In this document: positions 769 to 38,145 of the stretch, in pieces
Layout: every line of letters begins with the position of its first letter
Position numbering within the stretch: the stretch's first letter is position 1
DNA from: Escherichia coli
GTDB lineage: Bacteria > Pseudomonadota > Gammaproteobacteria > Enterobacterales > Enterobacteriaceae
Assembly (NCBI RefSeq): GCF_024502345.1
Contig: NZ_JALDNN010000001.1
Length of the DNA: 64,000 nucleotides
Direction: 5' to 3' (one strand)
Made by a program: the position numbers and the translations under genes
The notes under the pieces: generated by a model
The model's database searches: none
Told to the model about the DNA's origin: nothing
Seen by the model: the letters and a program-made list of their open reading frames with translations, nothing else

Positions 769-3308
<2,540 letters not shown>

Positions 3309-3487
3309 TTACCAGGATGATTCTCAAAACAGCACAAATAATCAAAGATGATTTTTTCGGGAGCGATCCCGTTGACGCCAGAGCCACCAAGGGGTGACGC
3401 ACGTCACATTTCTATTCATAAGTAGCGTTAATCATTCATATCGCGAATATTTTCTTGTCAGCGAAAAAAATTGCGGATAAGGTGATG

Positions 3488-3574
3488 AACACATCAGATT
3501 TCCTGGTGTAACGAATTTTTTAAGTGCTTCTTGCTTAAGCAAGTTTCATCCCGACCCCCTCAGGGTCGGGATTT
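3488..3574 (+). ncRNA. dsrA: DsrA small regulatory RNA (Hfq-dependent regulator of rpoS and hns)
   Basis: Sequence AACACATCAGATTTCCTGGTGTAACGAATTTTTTAAGTGCTTCTTGCTTAAGCAAGTTTCATCCCGACCCCCTCAGGGTCGGGATTT matches DsrA as recalled, including the terminal intrinsic-terminator hairpin and T-run. Confidence 0.8.
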
Positions 3575-3587
3575 TTTTATTGTGCAT

Positions 3588-3815
3588 TCAACGATTCACT
3601 TCAGAGACGCTGAAGTCATGAATATCCAGTTCGAAGGCATCCGCCAATTCACGCCATGTATGATATTCACGTCCATCGACGCTAACGTGTTCAGAATCGT
3701 TCTGGCTGCGATGAACTTCGCTTTCGCTAATTTCATTGATCGCCGCCAGCAGGGCATCGACATCGACGCTGACCTCACGTTTTGCGGTATCGCTGTACTC
3801 TTTTGCGGTTTTCAT
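3588..3815 (-). CDS. yodD: Stress-induced small protein YodD
   Basis: ORF containing MKTAKEYSDTAKREV...; conserved location between dsrA and dsrB. Confidence 0.7.
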   Translation of the reverse strand: MKTAKEYSDTAKREVSVDVDALLAAINEISESEVHRSQNDSEHVSVDGREYHTWRELADAFELDIHDFSVSEVNR

Positions 3816-3887
3816 CATCTTTCCTCGCAACCGTTACTCTGTTGTTGCCGCCAGTCGTTAAGTCCGCCTGGCATCTCTTAAGTATAG

Positions 3888-4166
<279 letters not shown>

Positions 4167-16097: not shown

Positions 16098-16299
16098 GTT
16101 TTGTAACCTGTTGTTAATTACTTCCAATCTCACCGCTTGGGGCATGGATGGGGCAAACTCACTCAATTTCTGGTTTAAAATGGATACCTGATCCTGAAAG
16201 TTTTCTGCCATCCACGATCCGTAAACGCGATAACATGTTTTGTCGGTGATGCTGCCAACTTACTGATTTAGTGTATGATGGTGTTTTTGAGGTGCTCCA

Positions 16300-16575
16300 G
16301 TGGCTTCTGTTTCTATCAGCTGTCCCTCCTGTTCAGCTACTGACGGGGTGGTGCGTAACGGCAAAAGCACCGCCGGACATCAGCGCTATCTCTGCTCTCA
16401 CTGCCGTAAAACATGGCAACTGCAGTTCACTTACACCGCTTCTCAACCCGGTACGCACCAGAAAATCATTGATATGGCCATGAATGGCGTTGGATGCCGG
16501 GCAACCGCCCGCATTATGGGCGTTGGCCTCAACACGATTTTCCGCCATTTAAAAAACTCAGGCCGCAGTCGGTAA
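16300..16575 (+). CDS. insA: IS1 InsA (transposition inhibitor / N-terminal part of transposase)
   Basis: 91-aa [46 protein letters not shown]... Confidence 0.9.
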
Positions 16576-16997
16576 CCTCGCGCATACAGCCGGGCAGTGA
16601 CGTCATCGTCTGCGCGGAAATGGACGAACAGTGGGGATACGTCGGGGCTAAATCGCGCCAGCGCTGGCTGTTTTACGCGTATGACAGGCTCCGGAAGACG
16701 GTTGTTGCGCACGTATTCGGTGAACGCACTATGGCGACGCTGGGGCGTCTTATGAGCCTGCTGTCACCCTTTGACGTGGTGATATGGATGACGGATGGCT
16801 GGCCGCTGTATGAATCCCGCCTGAAGGGAAAGCTGCACGTAATCAGCAAGCGATATACGCAGCGAATTGAGCGGCATAACCTGAATCTGAGGCAGCACCT
16901 GGCACGGCTGGGACGGAAGTCGCTGTCGTTCTCAAAATCGGTGGAGCTGCATGACAAAGTCATCGGGCATTATCTGAACATAAAACACTATCAATAA
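16494..16997 (+). CDS. insB: IS1 InsB frame (expressed as the InsAB' fusion)
   Basis: 167-aa ORF in the -1 frame relative to insA, inside IS1. Confidence 0.9.
16551..16557 (+). promoter_or_regulatory. IS1 programmed -1 ribosomal frameshift motif (AAAAAAC) generating the InsAB' transposase
   Basis: A6C heptamer at the insA/insB overlap. Confidence 0.75.
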
Positions 16998-17352
16998 GTT
17001 GGAGTCATTACCTTGCGTAAGATAGATGAGACAAACTGAGACGCATAATGGTTTGCAAGGCTCTAATACTTTGATGTTGAGGATGTGATGGGGCATGTAC
17101 GGGGCATAGTACAATGATGTCCATGCTGGTGTAGATAATCTCCAGGCTTATCCGGTGCGCCGTAAAACCCCGTCCTTCAGGGCAGGGATATAAGGCGTGG
17201 TTTTCCACCTAACCAGGTGTTTGCTGTTGTTCAATGTATTGGCGGATGACGGATATTGGCGCACCTCCGCAGCTACTGGCAAAATAGCCAGCACTCCACA
17301 AAACGCCTTTGTAGTAATACCTGACTGCAATATCTGGTCGATCTCGTCGCAG

Positions 17353-33088: not shown

Positions 33089-33844
33089 ATGATACTCACT
33101 CTCAGGGGCGTTGCGGTTTACTATGCAGATACGGATTTTTTCAGCTGGCGTCGCACGATGCTGTTGCGTTTTCAGAGGATGGAGGCCGCAGAAGAGGTCT
33201 ACCATGAAATAGAGCTTCAGGCTCAGCAGCTGGAGTACGATTACTATTCGTTATGTGTTCGCCACCCGGTACCATTCACGCGACCTAAAGTGGCTTTCTA
33301 CACCAATTACCCTGAGTCGTGGGTTAGTTATTATCAGGCAAAAAATTTTCTCGCAATTGATCCTGTGCTGAACCCTGAAAACTTTAGTCAGGGCCATTTA
33401 ATGTGGAATGATGACTTATTCAGCGAAGCACAGCCATTATGGGAAGCCGCGCACGCACATGGTTTACGCCGCGGTGTCACTCAGTATTTAATGCTGCCAA
33501 ATCGGGCGCTGGGCTTTTTGTCCTTTTCCTGTTGCAGCACGCGCAAAATACCCATTCTTAGTGATGAACTGCAATTAAAAATGCAGTTACTGGTGCGCGA
33601 AAGTCTGATGGCTCTGATGCGCTTAAATGATGAAATAGTGATGACGCCAGAGATGAATTTCAGCAAGCGCGAAAAAGAAATTCTGAAATGGACGGCGGAA
33701 GGGAAGACATCAGCAGAGATAGCGATGATTTTGTCAATCTCTGAGAATACGGTCAATTTCCATCAGAAAAACATGCAGAAAAAAATCAATGCACCAAATA
33801 AGACCCAGGTGGCCTGTTACGCGGCCGCTACTGGCTTAATTTGA
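33089..33844 (+). CDS. sdiA: LuxR-type quorum-sensing regulator SdiA, with atypical N-terminus in this sequence
   Basis: Body matches SdiA as recalled (FFSWRRTMLLRFQRME...ACYAAATGLI); the canonical MQDKDFF start is not in frame here. Confidence 0.8.
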   Translation: MILTLRGVAVYYADTDFFSWRRTMLLRFQRMEAAEEVYHEIELQAQQLEYDYYSLCVRHPVPFTRPKVAFYTNYPESWVSYYQAKNFLAIDPVLNPENFSQGHLMWNDDLFSEAQPLWEAAHAHGLRRGVTQYLMLPNRALGFLSFSCCSTRKIPILSDELQLKMQLLVRESLMALMRLNDEIVMTPEMNFSKREKEILKWTAEGKTSAEIAMILSISENTVNFHQKNMQKKINAPNKTQVACYAAATGLI

Positions 33845-33910: not shown

Positions 33911-34135
33911 TTACTGACGGTAGGCTTGTTTAATTTGCTTAACCGTTTTGGAAAATACTGCAGCCTGGGTTTCGTCTTCGATCAGCGCAAGCTGTTTTTC
34001 CATCTTTAACATCACGCGGCCCGCGTCAGCTTGTCCCATCGCCTGCAGCATCAGCGTCAGCATCGCTTTCAGGCAGGAGACTTCATTTGCCAGTTCTTGA
34101 TTATTCTCGGCAGTAGAAAAATCAGGCGTACTCAT
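33911..34135 (-). CDS. yecF: Small protein YecF (DUF2594)
   Basis: 74-aa ORF; conserved neighbour of sdiA. Confidence 0.75.
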
Positions 34136-34471
34136 TTATTTTCCTCGTCATGTTGCAATGAAAATTTGCGGTGAAAAATGTTAAGGCGGCGGAGTATACC
34201 ATAAGCTTTGCTAAAAATAGCAGTGGTTGTTTTTTGAGCGTGATATCGGCAGTGCTATAAAATACGTTAATATAATGACCAATAAATATTTTTATCATGA
34301 ATGTTTTTTGCCCGTATTGTTCGGGTTAATTAATGTTACATATTCAGCGGGCTGATTTTCATTTTTGCTGAATAAAGTCAATTTTTGTCACATTTCATCG
34401 CCGGGCTTACTGTGAAACGATCCCGGAAGCCGTTGGTGACGGGCGTGACCATAACTGTGGACAATCGAATT

Positions 34472-35528
34472 GGCTTTGTTGAATAAATCAGATTTCGGGT
34501 AAGTCTCCCCCGTAGCGGGTTGTGTTTTCAGGCAATACGCACGCTTTCAGGCATACCTGCTTTCGTCATTTTGTTCAGCGCTCGTACCAGGGCCATAGCC
34601 TCTGCAACCTGACCATCGTAGTCACGCAGTGTCAGTGAACCCCCGAACAGCTGTTTTACCCGGTACATCGCCGTTTCCGCTATCGAGCGACGGTTGTAAT
34701 CTGTTGTCCATTTCCACCGCGCATTACTCCCGGTCATTCGCTGATTAGCCACTGCACGGTTACGGTCTGCATATTCACCGGGCCAGTAACCCGCACCTTT
34801 TCGGGGAGGGATAAGCGCGCTGATTTTCTTACGCCGCAGTTCATCGTGACATAGCCGGGTATCGTAAGCGCCATCGGCGGCGGCTGACCTGATTTTCCGG
34901 TGGGTTTGCCGGATTAACCCGGGGAAGGCCTCTGAGTCCGTAACGTTGTTCAGCGACAGGTCAGCGCAGATGATTTCATGTGTTTTACTGTCAACGGCGA
35001 GATGCAGCTTACGCCAGATACGGCGGCGTTCCTGGCCATGCTTTTTGACTTTCCACTCGCCTTCACCGAAGACCTTCAGCCCGGTGGAATCAATTACCAG
35101 GTGTGCGATTTCACCCCGGGTGGGCGTTTTGAAACTGACATTAACCGACTTTGCCCGCCTGCTGACACAGCTGTAATCCGGGCAGCGTAGCGGAACGTTC
35201 ATCAGAGAAAAAATGGAATCAATAAAGCCCTGCGCAGCGCGCAGGGTCAGCCTGAATACGCGTTTAATGACCAGCACAGTCGTGATGGCAAGGTCAGAAT
35301 AGCGCTGAGGTCTGCCTCGTGAAGAAGGTGTTGCTGACTCATACCAGGCCTGAATAGCTTCATCATCCAGCCAGAAAGTTATGGAGCCACGGTTGATGAG
35401 GGCTTTATTGTAGGTGGGCCAGTTGGTGATTTTGAACTTTTGCTTTGCCACGGAACGGTCTGCGTTGTCGGGAAGATACGTGATCTGATCCTTCAACTCA
35501 GCAAAAGTTCGATTTATTCAACAAAGCC
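34472..35528 (-). mobile_element. IS903-type (IS5 family) insertion sequence, complete 1057 bp, flanked by 9-bp target-site duplication AATCGAATT
   Basis: Terminal inverted repeats GGCTTTGTTGAATAAATC at both ends; identical 9-mers at 34463-34471 and 35529-35537. Confidence 0.9.
34528..35496 (-). CDS. IS903-type DDE transposase
   Basis: ORF MKDQITYLPDNADRSVAKQKFKITNWPTYNKALINRGS... inside the IS. Confidence 0.9.
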   Translation of the reverse strand: MKDQITYLPDNADRSVAKQKFKITNWPTYNKALINRGSITFWLDDEAIQAWYESATPSSRGRPQRYSDLAITTVLVIKRVFRLTLRAAQGFIDSIFSLMNVPLRCPDYSCVSRRAKSVNVSFKTPTRGEIAHLVIDSTGLKVFGEGEWKVKKHGQERRRIWRKLHLAVDSKTHEIICADLSLNNVTDSEAFPGLIRQTHRKIRSAAADGAYDTRLCHDELRRKKISALIPPRKGAGYWPGEYADRNRAVANQRMTGSNARWKWTTDYNRRSIAETAMYRVKQLFGGSLTLRDYDGQVAEAMALVRALNKMTKAGMPESVRIA

Positions 35529-35659
35529 AATCGAATTTACAAAAACGAGAGAAAAATCGAATACCCACCATTTTTAACGTTTCAAAGTTGCAATAAAAAC
35601 CGCTAATATACGAATGACTAACTATCAGTAGCGTTATCCCTATTTCTGGAGATATTCCT

Positions 35660-36316
35660 TTGATCAACGTTCTACTTGTTGATGACCACGAACTGGTGCG
35701 CGCAGGGATACGACGCATTCTGGAAGATATAAAGGGTATAAAAGTCGTCGGTGAGGCATCGTGCGGTGAAGACGCCGTTAAGTGGTGCCGGACAAATGCC
35801 GTTGACGTGGTGCTAATGGACATGAGTATGCCGGGCATTGGCGGTCTTGAGGCGACGCGTAAAATCGCGCGTTCCACAGCTGATGTCAAAATCATCATGC
35901 TTACCGTCCATACAGAAAACCCTTTACCAGCGAAAGTCATGCAGGCCGGTGCTGCGGGCTACCTCAGCAAAGGCGCGGCTCCGCAGGAAGTCGTGAGTGC
36001 GATTCGTTCTGTCTATTCAGGGCAGCGTTACATTGCTTCTGACATCGCTCAACAAATGGCGTTAAGCCAGATCGAACCAGAAAAAACAGAAAGCCCATTT
36101 GCCAGTTTGTCTGAACGTGAATTGCAGATTATGCTGATGATCACCAAGGGCCAGAAGGTCAATGAGATCTCAGAACAGCTCAATCTCAGTCCGAAAACGG
36201 TGAACAGCTACCGCTATCGTATGTTCAGTAAACTAAACATTCATGGCGATGTTGAGCTGACTCACCTGGCAATTCGCCATGGTCTGTGTAATGCGGAGAC
36301 ATTATCAAGTCAGTGA
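35660..36316 (+). CDS. uvrY: Response regulator UvrY (BarA/UvrY two-component system, NarL/FixJ family)
   Basis: 218-aa [22 protein letters not shown]..., receiver domain plus LuxR HTH. Confidence 0.9.
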
Positions 36317-38145
36317 GTGATCAGTTTGACGCAAAAGCGTTTTTAAAAACCGTAACCAGCCAGCCAGGCGTTTATCGCATGTACGATGCTGGTGGTACGG
36401 TTATCTATGTCGGCAAAGCGAAAGACCTGAAAAAACGGCTTTCCAGCTATTTCCGTAGCAACCTCGCTTCGCGCAAAACCGAAGCGCTGGTCGCCCAGAT
36501 CCAGCAAATTGATGTAACGGTTACTCACACAGAAACCGAAGCGCTGTTGCTGGAACACAACTACATCAAACTCTATCAGCCGCGTTACAACGTTTTGCTA
36601 CGCGATGATAAATCATATCCTTTTATCTTCCTGAGTGGTGATACCCACCCGCGTCTGGCGATGCATCGTGGTGCGAAGCATGCCAAAGGTGAATATTTCG
36701 GCCCGTTCCCGAATGGCTATGCCGTACGTGAAACACTGGCGCTACTGCAAAAGATATTCCCCATTCGCCAGTGCGAAAATAGTGTTTATCGCAATCGCTC
36801 GCGTCCGTGTCTGCAATATCAGATAGGGCGCTGTCTGGGACCGTGCGTTGAAGGACTGGTGAGTGAAGAAGAATACGCTCAGCAGGTCGAGTATGTGCGC
36901 CTGTTTTTGTCTGGCAAAGATGATCAGGTGCTTACGCAACTCATTAGCCGTATGGAAACTGCCAGCCAGAATCTGGAGTTTGAAGAAGCTGCACGTATTC
37001 GCGACCAAATTCAGGCGGTGCGACGCGTCACCGAAAAACAATTCGTTTCCAATACCGGCGACGACCTCGACGTTATTGGTGTGGCGTTCGATGCGGGCAT
37101 GGCTTGTGTCCACGTATTGTTCATTCGTCAGGGCAAAGTGCTCGGCAGCCGCAGCTATTTCCCGAAAGTGCCTGGCGGTACGGAACTGAGCGAGGTGGTA
37201 GAAACCTTCGTAGGCCAGTTCTATTTACAAGGCAGCCAGATGCGCACCTTACCGGGTGAGATCCTGCTCGATTTTAATCTTAGCGATAAAACGCTGCTCG
37301 CCGATTCCCTTTCAGAACTGGCGGGACGCAAGATTAATGTTCAAACCAAACCTCGCGGCGATAGGGCGCGTTATCTGAAACTCGCGCGCACCAATGCGGC
37401 GACGGCCTTAACCAGCAAACTTTCGCAGCAATCTACCGTTCACCAGCGACTGACCGCGCTTGCCAGCGTGTTGAAATTGCCGGAAGTGAAGCGGATGGAG
37501 TGCTTTGACATCAGCCATACCATGGGCGAACAAACCGTCGCTTCCTGTGTGGTGTTTGATGCTAACGGCCCGCTGCGTGCGGAGTATCGGCGCTATAACA
37601 TTACAGGCATCACGCCGGGCGATGATTATGCGGCGATGAATCAGGTGCTGCGTCGGCGTTATGGTAAAGCCATTGACGACAGTAAGATCCCGGATGTGAT
37701 CCTTATCGACGGCGGCAAAGGCCAGCTTGCGCAGGCGAAAAATGTCTTCGCCGAACTGGATGTCTCATGGGATAAAAATCATCCACTGCTACTTGGCGTT
37801 GCCAAAGGAGCAGATCGTAAGGCTGGGCTGGAAACACTGTTCTTTGAGCCGGAAGGTGAGGGATTCAGTTTGCCGCCAGATTCTCCCGCGCTGCATGTTA
37901 TCCAGCATATTCGCGATGAATCACACGATCACGCGATTGGCGGGCACCGTAAAAAACGGGCGAAGGTCAAAAATACCAGCTCCCTGGAAACCATTGAAGG
38001 CGTCGGGCCAAAACGTCGGCAAATGTTGTTGAAATATATGGGCGGTTTGCAAGGTTTACGTAACGCCAGCGTCGAGGAAATTGCAAAAGTGCCGGGTATT
38101 TCGCAAGGTCTGGCAGAAAAGATCTTCTGGTCGTTGAAACATTGA
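36313..38145 (+). CDS. uvrC: Excinuclease ABC subunit C UvrC
   Basis: 610-aa ORF with GIY-YIG N-terminus ([23 protein letters not shown]) and C-terminal HhH. Confidence 0.9.

Follow-up and report, generated by a model that had tools for sequence, protein, structure and literature searches.

An IS903B insertion upstream of uvrY in Escherichia coli: retained core promoter, displaced distal region and a proposed uncoupling from NhaR and H-NS

A 64,000-nucleotide stretch of an Escherichia coli genome (RefSeq assembly GCF_024502345.1, contig NZ_JALDNN010000001.1), hereafter the window, carries a complete insertion sequence (IS), IS903B, in the spacer between the small protein gene yecU and uvrY, which encodes the response regulator UvrY. 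The element ends 131 bp upstream of uvrY's start codon and has displaced the DNA further upstream, while the mapped transcription start site (TSS) and a strongly conserved core promoter lie on the uvrY side of the insertion. With a probability that we put at roughly 0.55, the outcome would be a regulatory uncoupling, in which uvrY is still transcribed, with a basal expression that matches or modestly exceeds that of the wild type, and is insulated from NhaR and H-NS. The anatomy of the insertion is described first, with its termini and duplications as follows.

34472..35528, minus strand: IS903B insertion sequence, 1057 bp, IS5 family, IS903 group, with 100% nucleotide identity to annotated copies
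34472..34489, plus strand: terminal inverted repeat at the 3' end of the transposase gene, GGCTTTGTTGAATAAATC, exact match
35511..35528, minus strand: terminal inverted repeat at the 5' end of the transposase gene, toward uvrY, exact reverse complement
34463..34471, no strand: left copy of the target-site duplication AATCGAATT, native -131..-123 relative to the uvrY start
35529..35537, no strand: right copy of the target-site duplication AATCGAATT, the same 9 bp as the left copy
34528..35496, minus strand: open reading frame of the IS903B DDE transposase, 322 amino acids from TTG, as in the annotation of the Prokaryotic Genome Annotation Pipeline (PGAP)
Junctions between IS and host: GTGGACAATCGAATTGGCTTTGTTGAATAAATC and GATTTATTCAACAAAGCCAATCGAATTTACAAAAACG

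An earlier interpretation made from the letters alone (the sequence-only reading) had described a recent IS903 insertion whose inverted repeats are intact and whose 9-bp target duplication is perfect, lying 131 bp upstream of uvrY with its transposase transcribed away from that gene, and all of these points hold. Both termini are perfect 18-bp inverted repeats, and their sequence has just two matches in the 64-kb window even when up to two mismatches are tolerated, where shuffled sequences lead one to expect none; beyond these 18 bp an imperfect terminal complementarity reaches 36 nt at 81%. The 9-bp direct duplication is perfect on both sides of the IS and is present as a single copy in the empty site. 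The IS ends at 35528 and the uvrY TTG begins at 35660, and the single long open reading frame that covers the element runs from 35496 down to 34528 on the minus strand. It encodes a DDE transposase of the IS4/IS5 type, in which the Pfam domains DDE_Tnp_1_5 (3e-40) and DDE_Tnp_1 (7e-33) score far past their cut-offs, and the protein is identical to WP_000654812.1. A refinement concerns the spacer: the insertion does lie upstream of uvrY, as stated, and the spacer that it interrupts is now yecU-uvrY, as current RefSeq annotation places yecU between yecF and the IS.

The length of the element is that of the IS903 group (~1057 bp), and the 18-bp repeats, the 9-bp duplication and the lone DDE transposase are likewise shared with IS903 and IS903B. 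Its full 1057 bp are 100% identical to many copies in complete E. coli genomes that PGAP labels 'IS5-like element IS903B family transposase'. On the strength of this identity, measured against PGAP-annotated RefSeq copies rather than the ISfinder reference, the isoform is IS903B by sequence, and the name IS903 is right at the level of the group. Some copy of IS903B occurs in 1993 of 5426 complete E. coli genomes, and its intactness and identity to these widespread copies imply, short of proof, that the copy in the window is capable of transposing. The element itself differs in no way from known IS903B; the insertion site alone is new.

When the empty site was rebuilt by deleting the IS and one copy of the duplication, it was found contiguous in 5370 of the 5426 complete genomes, at identities of up to 99.8%, and in none of the 5426 does IS903B occupy the uvrY site. 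The sole full-coverage match, poultry strain 729_141114_1_15 (H26; NZ_CP160108.1), has a separate IS903B insertion inside sdiA, at ~3001-4057 of the extracted locus, where RefSeq annotates two pseudogene pieces. A 33-nt pattern spanning the left junction gave no match in the metagenome contig collection. Taken together, the perfect duplication, the full identity to other copies and the private distribution point to a recent, lineage-specific event; and since the window holds just one IS903B copy, the element was inserted on its own rather than within a composite transposon. Interruptions of the yecU-uvrY spacer are rare in nature: with a 600-bp empty site as the query, 49 of 5419 genomes fell short of 80% contiguous coverage, and the number of extra places came to 13, both figures being bounds only. 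It is scarcely credible that the assembler misplaced an IS903B copy here. IS elements are indeed common sites of misassembly, but the removal of this one together with one copy of the duplication restores the wild-type site base for base, which a misjoin would not do, and insertions or deletions relative to related genomes are rare in the window.

What the insertion means for uvrY depends on which elements have stayed with the gene. These are the following.

35538..35562, plus strand: retained part of an A-rich conserved block, TACAAAAACGAGAGAAAAATCGAAT, native -122..-98; other genera are 72% identical to the window
35580..35609, plus strand: uvrY core promoter, with -35 TTTCAA at 35580-35585, an 18-bp spacer and -10 TAATAT at 35604-35609; conserved in 28/28 taxa
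35616..35659, plus strand: 44-nt 5' leader of uvrY from the published TSS, in which block -34..-8 is 93% conserved
35660..36316, plus strand: uvrY, response regulator, TTG start, intact, with Response_reg and GerE domains; the protein is 100% identical to K-12 UvrY

The TSS of uvrY has been placed at -44 from the UUG start in the differential RNA sequencing map of Thomason 2015, and this start was used to build a uvrY fusion (Brosse 2022, Table 1, PMC9262595). It corresponds to the G at 35616 of the window, 88 bp downstream of the IS end. Independent footprinting agrees with it. From the uvrY loci of 80 species genomes, the 300 bp upstream of the gene were aligned for 28 Enterobacteriaceae taxa, including Escherichia, Citrobacter, Salmonella, Enterobacter, Klebsiella, Kluyvera and Kosakonia. 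In this alignment the -10 hexamer TAATAT (-56..-51) is 97% conserved and the -35 hexamer TTTCAA/TTTTAA (-80..-75) 87%, always with 18 bp between them; the sequence near the TSS is variable, and the conserved part of the leader, which includes the Shine-Dalgarno sequence, follows it. A start near -44 was forecast from this pattern of conservation before the published value was known. Between the IS and uvrY, TTTCAA-18-TAATAT is the sole promoter-like site, and it ends 7 nt upstream of the published TSS. K-12 and the window agree at every position between -131 and -1, bar one G/T difference at -122. As the TSS and the conserved -35/-10 pair lie downstream of the IS, the core promoter, the leader and the ribosome-binding site stay attached to uvrY. 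The proposal of the sequence-only reading that the IS separates uvrY from upstream elements thus stands for the upstream regulatory DNA and fails for the core promoter. That reading had also asked whether the transcription starts lie entirely downstream of 35528: the main start does, while other, upstream starts have been reported (Krol 2018, PMC6307784).

Krol's predicted SdiA2 site, at ~-102, probably falls within the retained A-rich block at 35538-35562, the assignment of the block to that motif being our own. Convincing matches to LexA, CRP or IHF motifs were not seen in the split conserved block by inspection by eye, the only check made for them. A sigma-28 promoter was also considered: AAAGTTG upstream of TAATAT resembles, by eye, the FliA -35 element TAAAGTTT at an 11-bp spacing; the candidate was rejected, because the -10 is without the CGA core of GCCGATAA.

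A separate observation concerns the G/T polymorphism at 35538 (native -122), directly after the target duplication. K-12 reads TTGACA here, a perfect -35 consensus, and the window reads TTTACA, as do other Escherichia species and many E. coli. Two uvrY starts, P2a and P2b, are said to have been described by Sharma in 1986. K-12 may have a strain-specific extra promoter at -122, and perhaps this is one of those two starts.

On the far side of the element lies the displaced DNA. The target duplication, native -131..-123, corresponds to -87..-79 relative to the TSS, and everything further upstream has been moved 1066 bp away. One displaced feature is conserved across genera.

34444..34462, plus strand: left part of the conserved block (native -150..-132), now 1066 bp further from uvrY; in other genera its majority-base frequency is 0.69

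The IS thus splits a block that extends over -150..-98, of which the more conserved right part, AATTTACAAAAACGAGAGAAAAATCG, is kept beside uvrY. Two promoter-like sites are displaced as well, TTGTCA-17-TACTGT (-209..-181) and GTGACG-18-GACAAT (-158..-129), and each of them scores 8/12, the chance level. Further out, an NhaR-dependent upstream start at -542 (T-542) has been reported by Krol (PMC6307784), and this too is displaced by the IS.

The same study provides reporter data from which the consequences of such a displacement can be gauged. Reporters reaching from -770, -634 or -358 to -9 share a common basal activity; the -260 fragment is ~1.8-fold above the longer fragments in a wild-type background, and the -196 fragment is ~12% above the -260 fragment. 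Deletion of hns raises all fragments 2.4- to 3.9-fold. NhaR shifts the fragment reaching -358 and not the -196 fragment, so NhaR binding lies upstream of -196. At 26 C and pH 8.4 the activity of the long fragment falls 26-fold and that of the -196 fragment 6.6-fold, and under these conditions the short fragment has lost its dependence on NhaR and keeps a 2-fold dependence on SdiA. Finally, in laboratory stocks with a spontaneous IS5 insertion at -260, nhaR no longer had an effect on csrB and csrC (all PMC6307784). The IS at -131 takes away at least as much upstream DNA as the -196 and -260 truncations. Since these truncations and the IS5 at -260 keep activity or raise it ~2-fold, and since NhaR control is lost with the -196 fragment and the IS5, uncoupling rather than silencing is to be predicted for the window.

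The sequence of events that we favour is as follows. One intact IS903B transposed recently into an AT-rich, H-NS-repressed yecU-uvrY spacer, duplicating AATCGAATT. The core promoter has remained with uvrY, together with its 44-nt leader and ribosome-binding site and the A-rich block with its predicted SdiA2 site. The NhaR-binding region, most of the predicted H-NS sites, the distal SdiA site, the upstream starts and the left third of the conserved block have been moved behind a foreign element of 47% AT. As the most likely consequence, uvrY would no longer respond to the NhaR and H-NS inputs (cold, alkaline conditions, high salt), and the output from BarA/UvrY to CsrB/CsrC would become less dependent on conditions. 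The direction and size of the change in expression are predictions from the published reporters.

Several points weigh against this view. The sites for SdiA, NhaR and H-NS come for the most part from in silico prediction in a study by a single author (PMC6307784). The closest reporter truncation to -131 that has been tested ends at -196. The map that gives the -44 TSS is from K-12 in standard conditions, and other starts exist (T-542; P2a, P2b). The conserved block at -150..-98 is split by the IS, and expression could fall if its left part binds an activator.

The last point leads to the reading in which the insertion severs the promoter, so that UvrY, CsrB and CsrC would go down, CsrA activity would go up and UvrC-dependent repair would weaken. 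It can draw on the displacement of the two weak promoter-like sites, of Krol's upstream starts and of the left part of the conserved block, and on the reputation of IS903B, whose best-known effect is the inactivation, in Klebsiella, of mgrB and the mgrB promoter region. It would also gain if the upstream starts counted for more than the K-12 data indicate. We consider a knock-down of this kind improbable, as the mapped TSS at -44 and the conserved -35/-10 pair are downstream of the IS, the -196..-9 fragment is fully active (PMC6307784), both displaced sites are at the chance level, and neither UvrY nor UvrC is damaged or differs from its K-12 counterpart. At most, then, the insertion is an uncoupling from distal control and not a severance of the promoter.

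The effect on nucleotide excision repair that the sequence-only reading had anticipated finds no support in the present analysis: UvrC is intact and identical to the K-12 protein, and uvrC is probably unaffected by the insertion. A scan found one promoter-like site inside uvrY, at the chance level. Promoters of uvrC are reportedly situated within uvrY, as Sharma in 1986 and Moolenaar in 1987 are said to have found.

The opposite possibility, a constitutive expression of uvrY driven by an outward or hybrid promoter of the IS, is very unlikely. Activation of neighbouring genes in this manner is a known mechanism for other IS elements, and here the IS end is just 88 bp from the TSS. Against it, the plus strand has no sigma-70-like site of at least 8/12 over the final 90 bp of the IS or at the junction: from 35440 to the native promoter a first scan gave none at 8/12 or better on that strand, and a second gave none at 9/12 or better. 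The literature searched describes IS903B as disruptive rather than activating.

Why the element came to lie at this particular site may have an answer in the nucleoid-associated protein H-NS. It has been reported that H-NS-bound DNA captures elements of the IS5 family, IS903 included (Cooper et al. 2024, Nat Commun, PMC11335895), and a re-analysis in that paper of the data of Swingle 2004 found 19 of 32 IS903 insertions in wild-type E. coli within H-NS-bound DNA; uvrY, yecF and sdiA are not mentioned in it. In the window the spacer is 61% AT, compared with 52% for the window as a whole and 47% for the IS. As H-NS represses through the uvrY upstream region, the spacer is AT-rich and IS5 has landed there too, capture by H-NS is a plausible reason for the choice of target that requires no selection. 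The window shares with the published system an element of the IS5 family, and a role of H-NS at this site is suggested by the uvrY reporters and the AT content.

The same argument lends weight to a neutral reading, in which the IS is a passenger that settled in a spacer favoured for being AT-rich and bound by H-NS, and under no natural condition matters for uvrY, yecU or yecF in any meaningful way. H-NS capture would account for the location without selection. Core promoters are kept on both sides of the IS, yecU retaining two promoter-like sites close to the gene as well as the conserved block that lies 40-55 bp upstream of its ATG, and insertions into the spacer are rare, with at most 13 of 5419 records showing the 600-bp site as two places besides one case of IS1 (see below). 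We nonetheless regard neutrality as rather unlikely, because the IS5 at -260, which is farther from uvrY, already altered the regulation of csrB/csrC measurably (PMC6307784), and IS903B is nearer to the gene and splits the conserved block.

Regulatory uncoupling of uvrY by an upstream IS has in fact been described before, as has the element itself, and the window appears to add one more natural allele through an ordinary strain-specific event. The nearest parallel is the IS5 at -260 in K-12 laboratory stocks (Krol 2018, PMC6307784), which belongs to the same family, entered the same region and likewise lies upstream of the core promoter; both elements sit between the uvrY core promoter and TSS on the one side and the NhaR and H-NS sites on the other, and a truncation that mimics the IS5 raised promoter activity 1.8-fold. 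They differ in that IS903B is 129 bp closer to uvrY, displaces -260..-132 in addition and splits the conserved block, and in that the IS5 arose in the laboratory. A second parallel is found in FDAARGOS_1291 (NZ_CP069980.1), a natural isolate with flanks near-identical to those of the window, in which an IS1 is inserted between yecU and uvrY (1897-2664 of the extracted locus) with the 9-bp duplication TCAGTAGCG. Unlike IS903B, this IS1 is separated from the uvrY start by no more than 35 bp of native sequence. Standing inside the conserved leader and downstream of the -44 TSS, it does sever uvrY from its promoter and is probably a natural uvrY knock-down.

Lesions of a more drastic kind are also on record. 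In uropathogenic E. coli (UPEC) strain 536, uvrY has been lost through a 6.1-kb deletion from uvrC to fliY, and colibactin activity has been lost with it, a change in the output of BarA/UvrY-Csr (PMC8805033); the locus is the same, but there the whole gene is deleted, with a demonstrated phenotype, and in the window uvrY is intact. In Klebsiella pneumoniae, IS903B and other IS elements have been found in or near the regulatory gene mgrB, where they inactivate the gene or its promoter, with colistin resistance as the clinical consequence; the coding sequence and the core promoter of uvrY are untouched here.

A further lesion lies close by in the window itself. The sdiA gene (33123-33844) carries a 1-bp deletion of G right after codon 2, between 33128 and 33129, which shifts the frame at codon 3. 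From the ATG at 33123 the window reads ATGCAG-ATACGG where other genomes have ATGCAGGATACGG, and the canonical frame ends after 29 codons. The additional G is present in 5371 complete genomes, and one record, which was not among the matches listed, scored at least 99% identity. In the closest genome, F8704-2, sdiA is intact and differs from the window by 3 further substitutions, 2 of them non-synonymous. The deletion is probably real, as a single gap occurs in ~8 kb relative to this genome and such differences are rare in the window. It places an upstream ATG at 33089 in frame, from which an N-terminally extended SdiA of 251 amino acids might be produced, as predicted from the translation.

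SdiA is a reported activator of uvrY (Krol 2018, PMC6307784). The occurrence of the sdiA frameshift and the IS903B insertion within 2.5 kb of each other could be taken for a selected rewiring, by which the output of the BarA/UvrY-Csr circuit would have become independent of quorum, pH and temperature. This we hold to be doubtful, and the presence of two private lesions on one regulatory axis may be coincidental.

The genes on either side of uvrY and the IS complete the picture of the locus.

34122..34298, minus strand: yecU, small protein gene, annotated in K-12 and other RefSeq genomes; the product is identical to K-12 YecU
36313..38145, plus strand: uvrC, intact, overlapping the uvrY stop by 4 nt; the protein is 100% identical to K-12 UvrC

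yecU and uvrY are divergent. Between the yecU start and the left end of the IS there are 173 bp, and the transposase gene reads toward yecU. The spacer holds two further items of note. The first is the conserved block GTTAAT(T/A)ATTGTTACA at ~34339-34354 (native -255..-240 relative to uvrY and 40-55 bp upstream of yecU's ATG), which is among the best-conserved non-coding stretches across the 28 Enterobacteriaceae. By eye it contains two GTTA direct repeats that resemble an ArcA box, with a spacing of 10 bp and not 11 bp, and it could be a candidate promoter or operator of yecU-yecF. The second, at ~34381-34452 on the minus strand, corresponds to a 72-nt pseudogene fragment of a 'transcriptional regulator' that PGAP annotates in the yecU-uvrY spacer of strain F8704-2 (16882-16953 of the extracted locus). 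In Erwinia and Pantoea a luxI homologue is located between sdiA and uvrY (review, PMC12086679), and the spacer may hold relics of lost genes.

Elsewhere in the window two other mobile features were noted. At 16245-17012 a 768-bp IS1 adjoins fliE and shares 99.9% identity with the IS1B of strain VTB97448v; that relative has, in place of the IS1 at this position, ~2.9 kb with emrE-ybcL-ybcM. A genomic island occupies ~39300-64000, to the right of the cluster of tRNA genes for Gly, Cys and Leu. It encodes a site-specific integrase and a second tyrosine recombinase, along with a type-B DNA polymerase and a type I restriction-modification system. Only 214 of the 5426 complete genomes cover it to at least 80%, with a best match at 98% identity.

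UvrY controls CsrB and CsrC and, via CsrA, affects carbon metabolism, biofilm formation, motility and virulence traits such as colibactin, and natural variation at the uvrY locus can therefore change the behaviour of a strain. For annotation and the prediction of phenotypes the lesson is that this IS903B insertion is not to be counted as a loss of uvrY, since the gene keeps both its mapped TSS and its conserved promoter. Were the doubtful notion of a selected rewiring to prove true, the locus would be a recurrent target of adaptive, IS-mediated change, and the window would join the IS5 at -260, the IS1 at -35 in FDAARGOS_1291, the sdiA::IS903B allele of the poultry strain and the uvrY deletion of UPEC 536 in a series of independent lesions.

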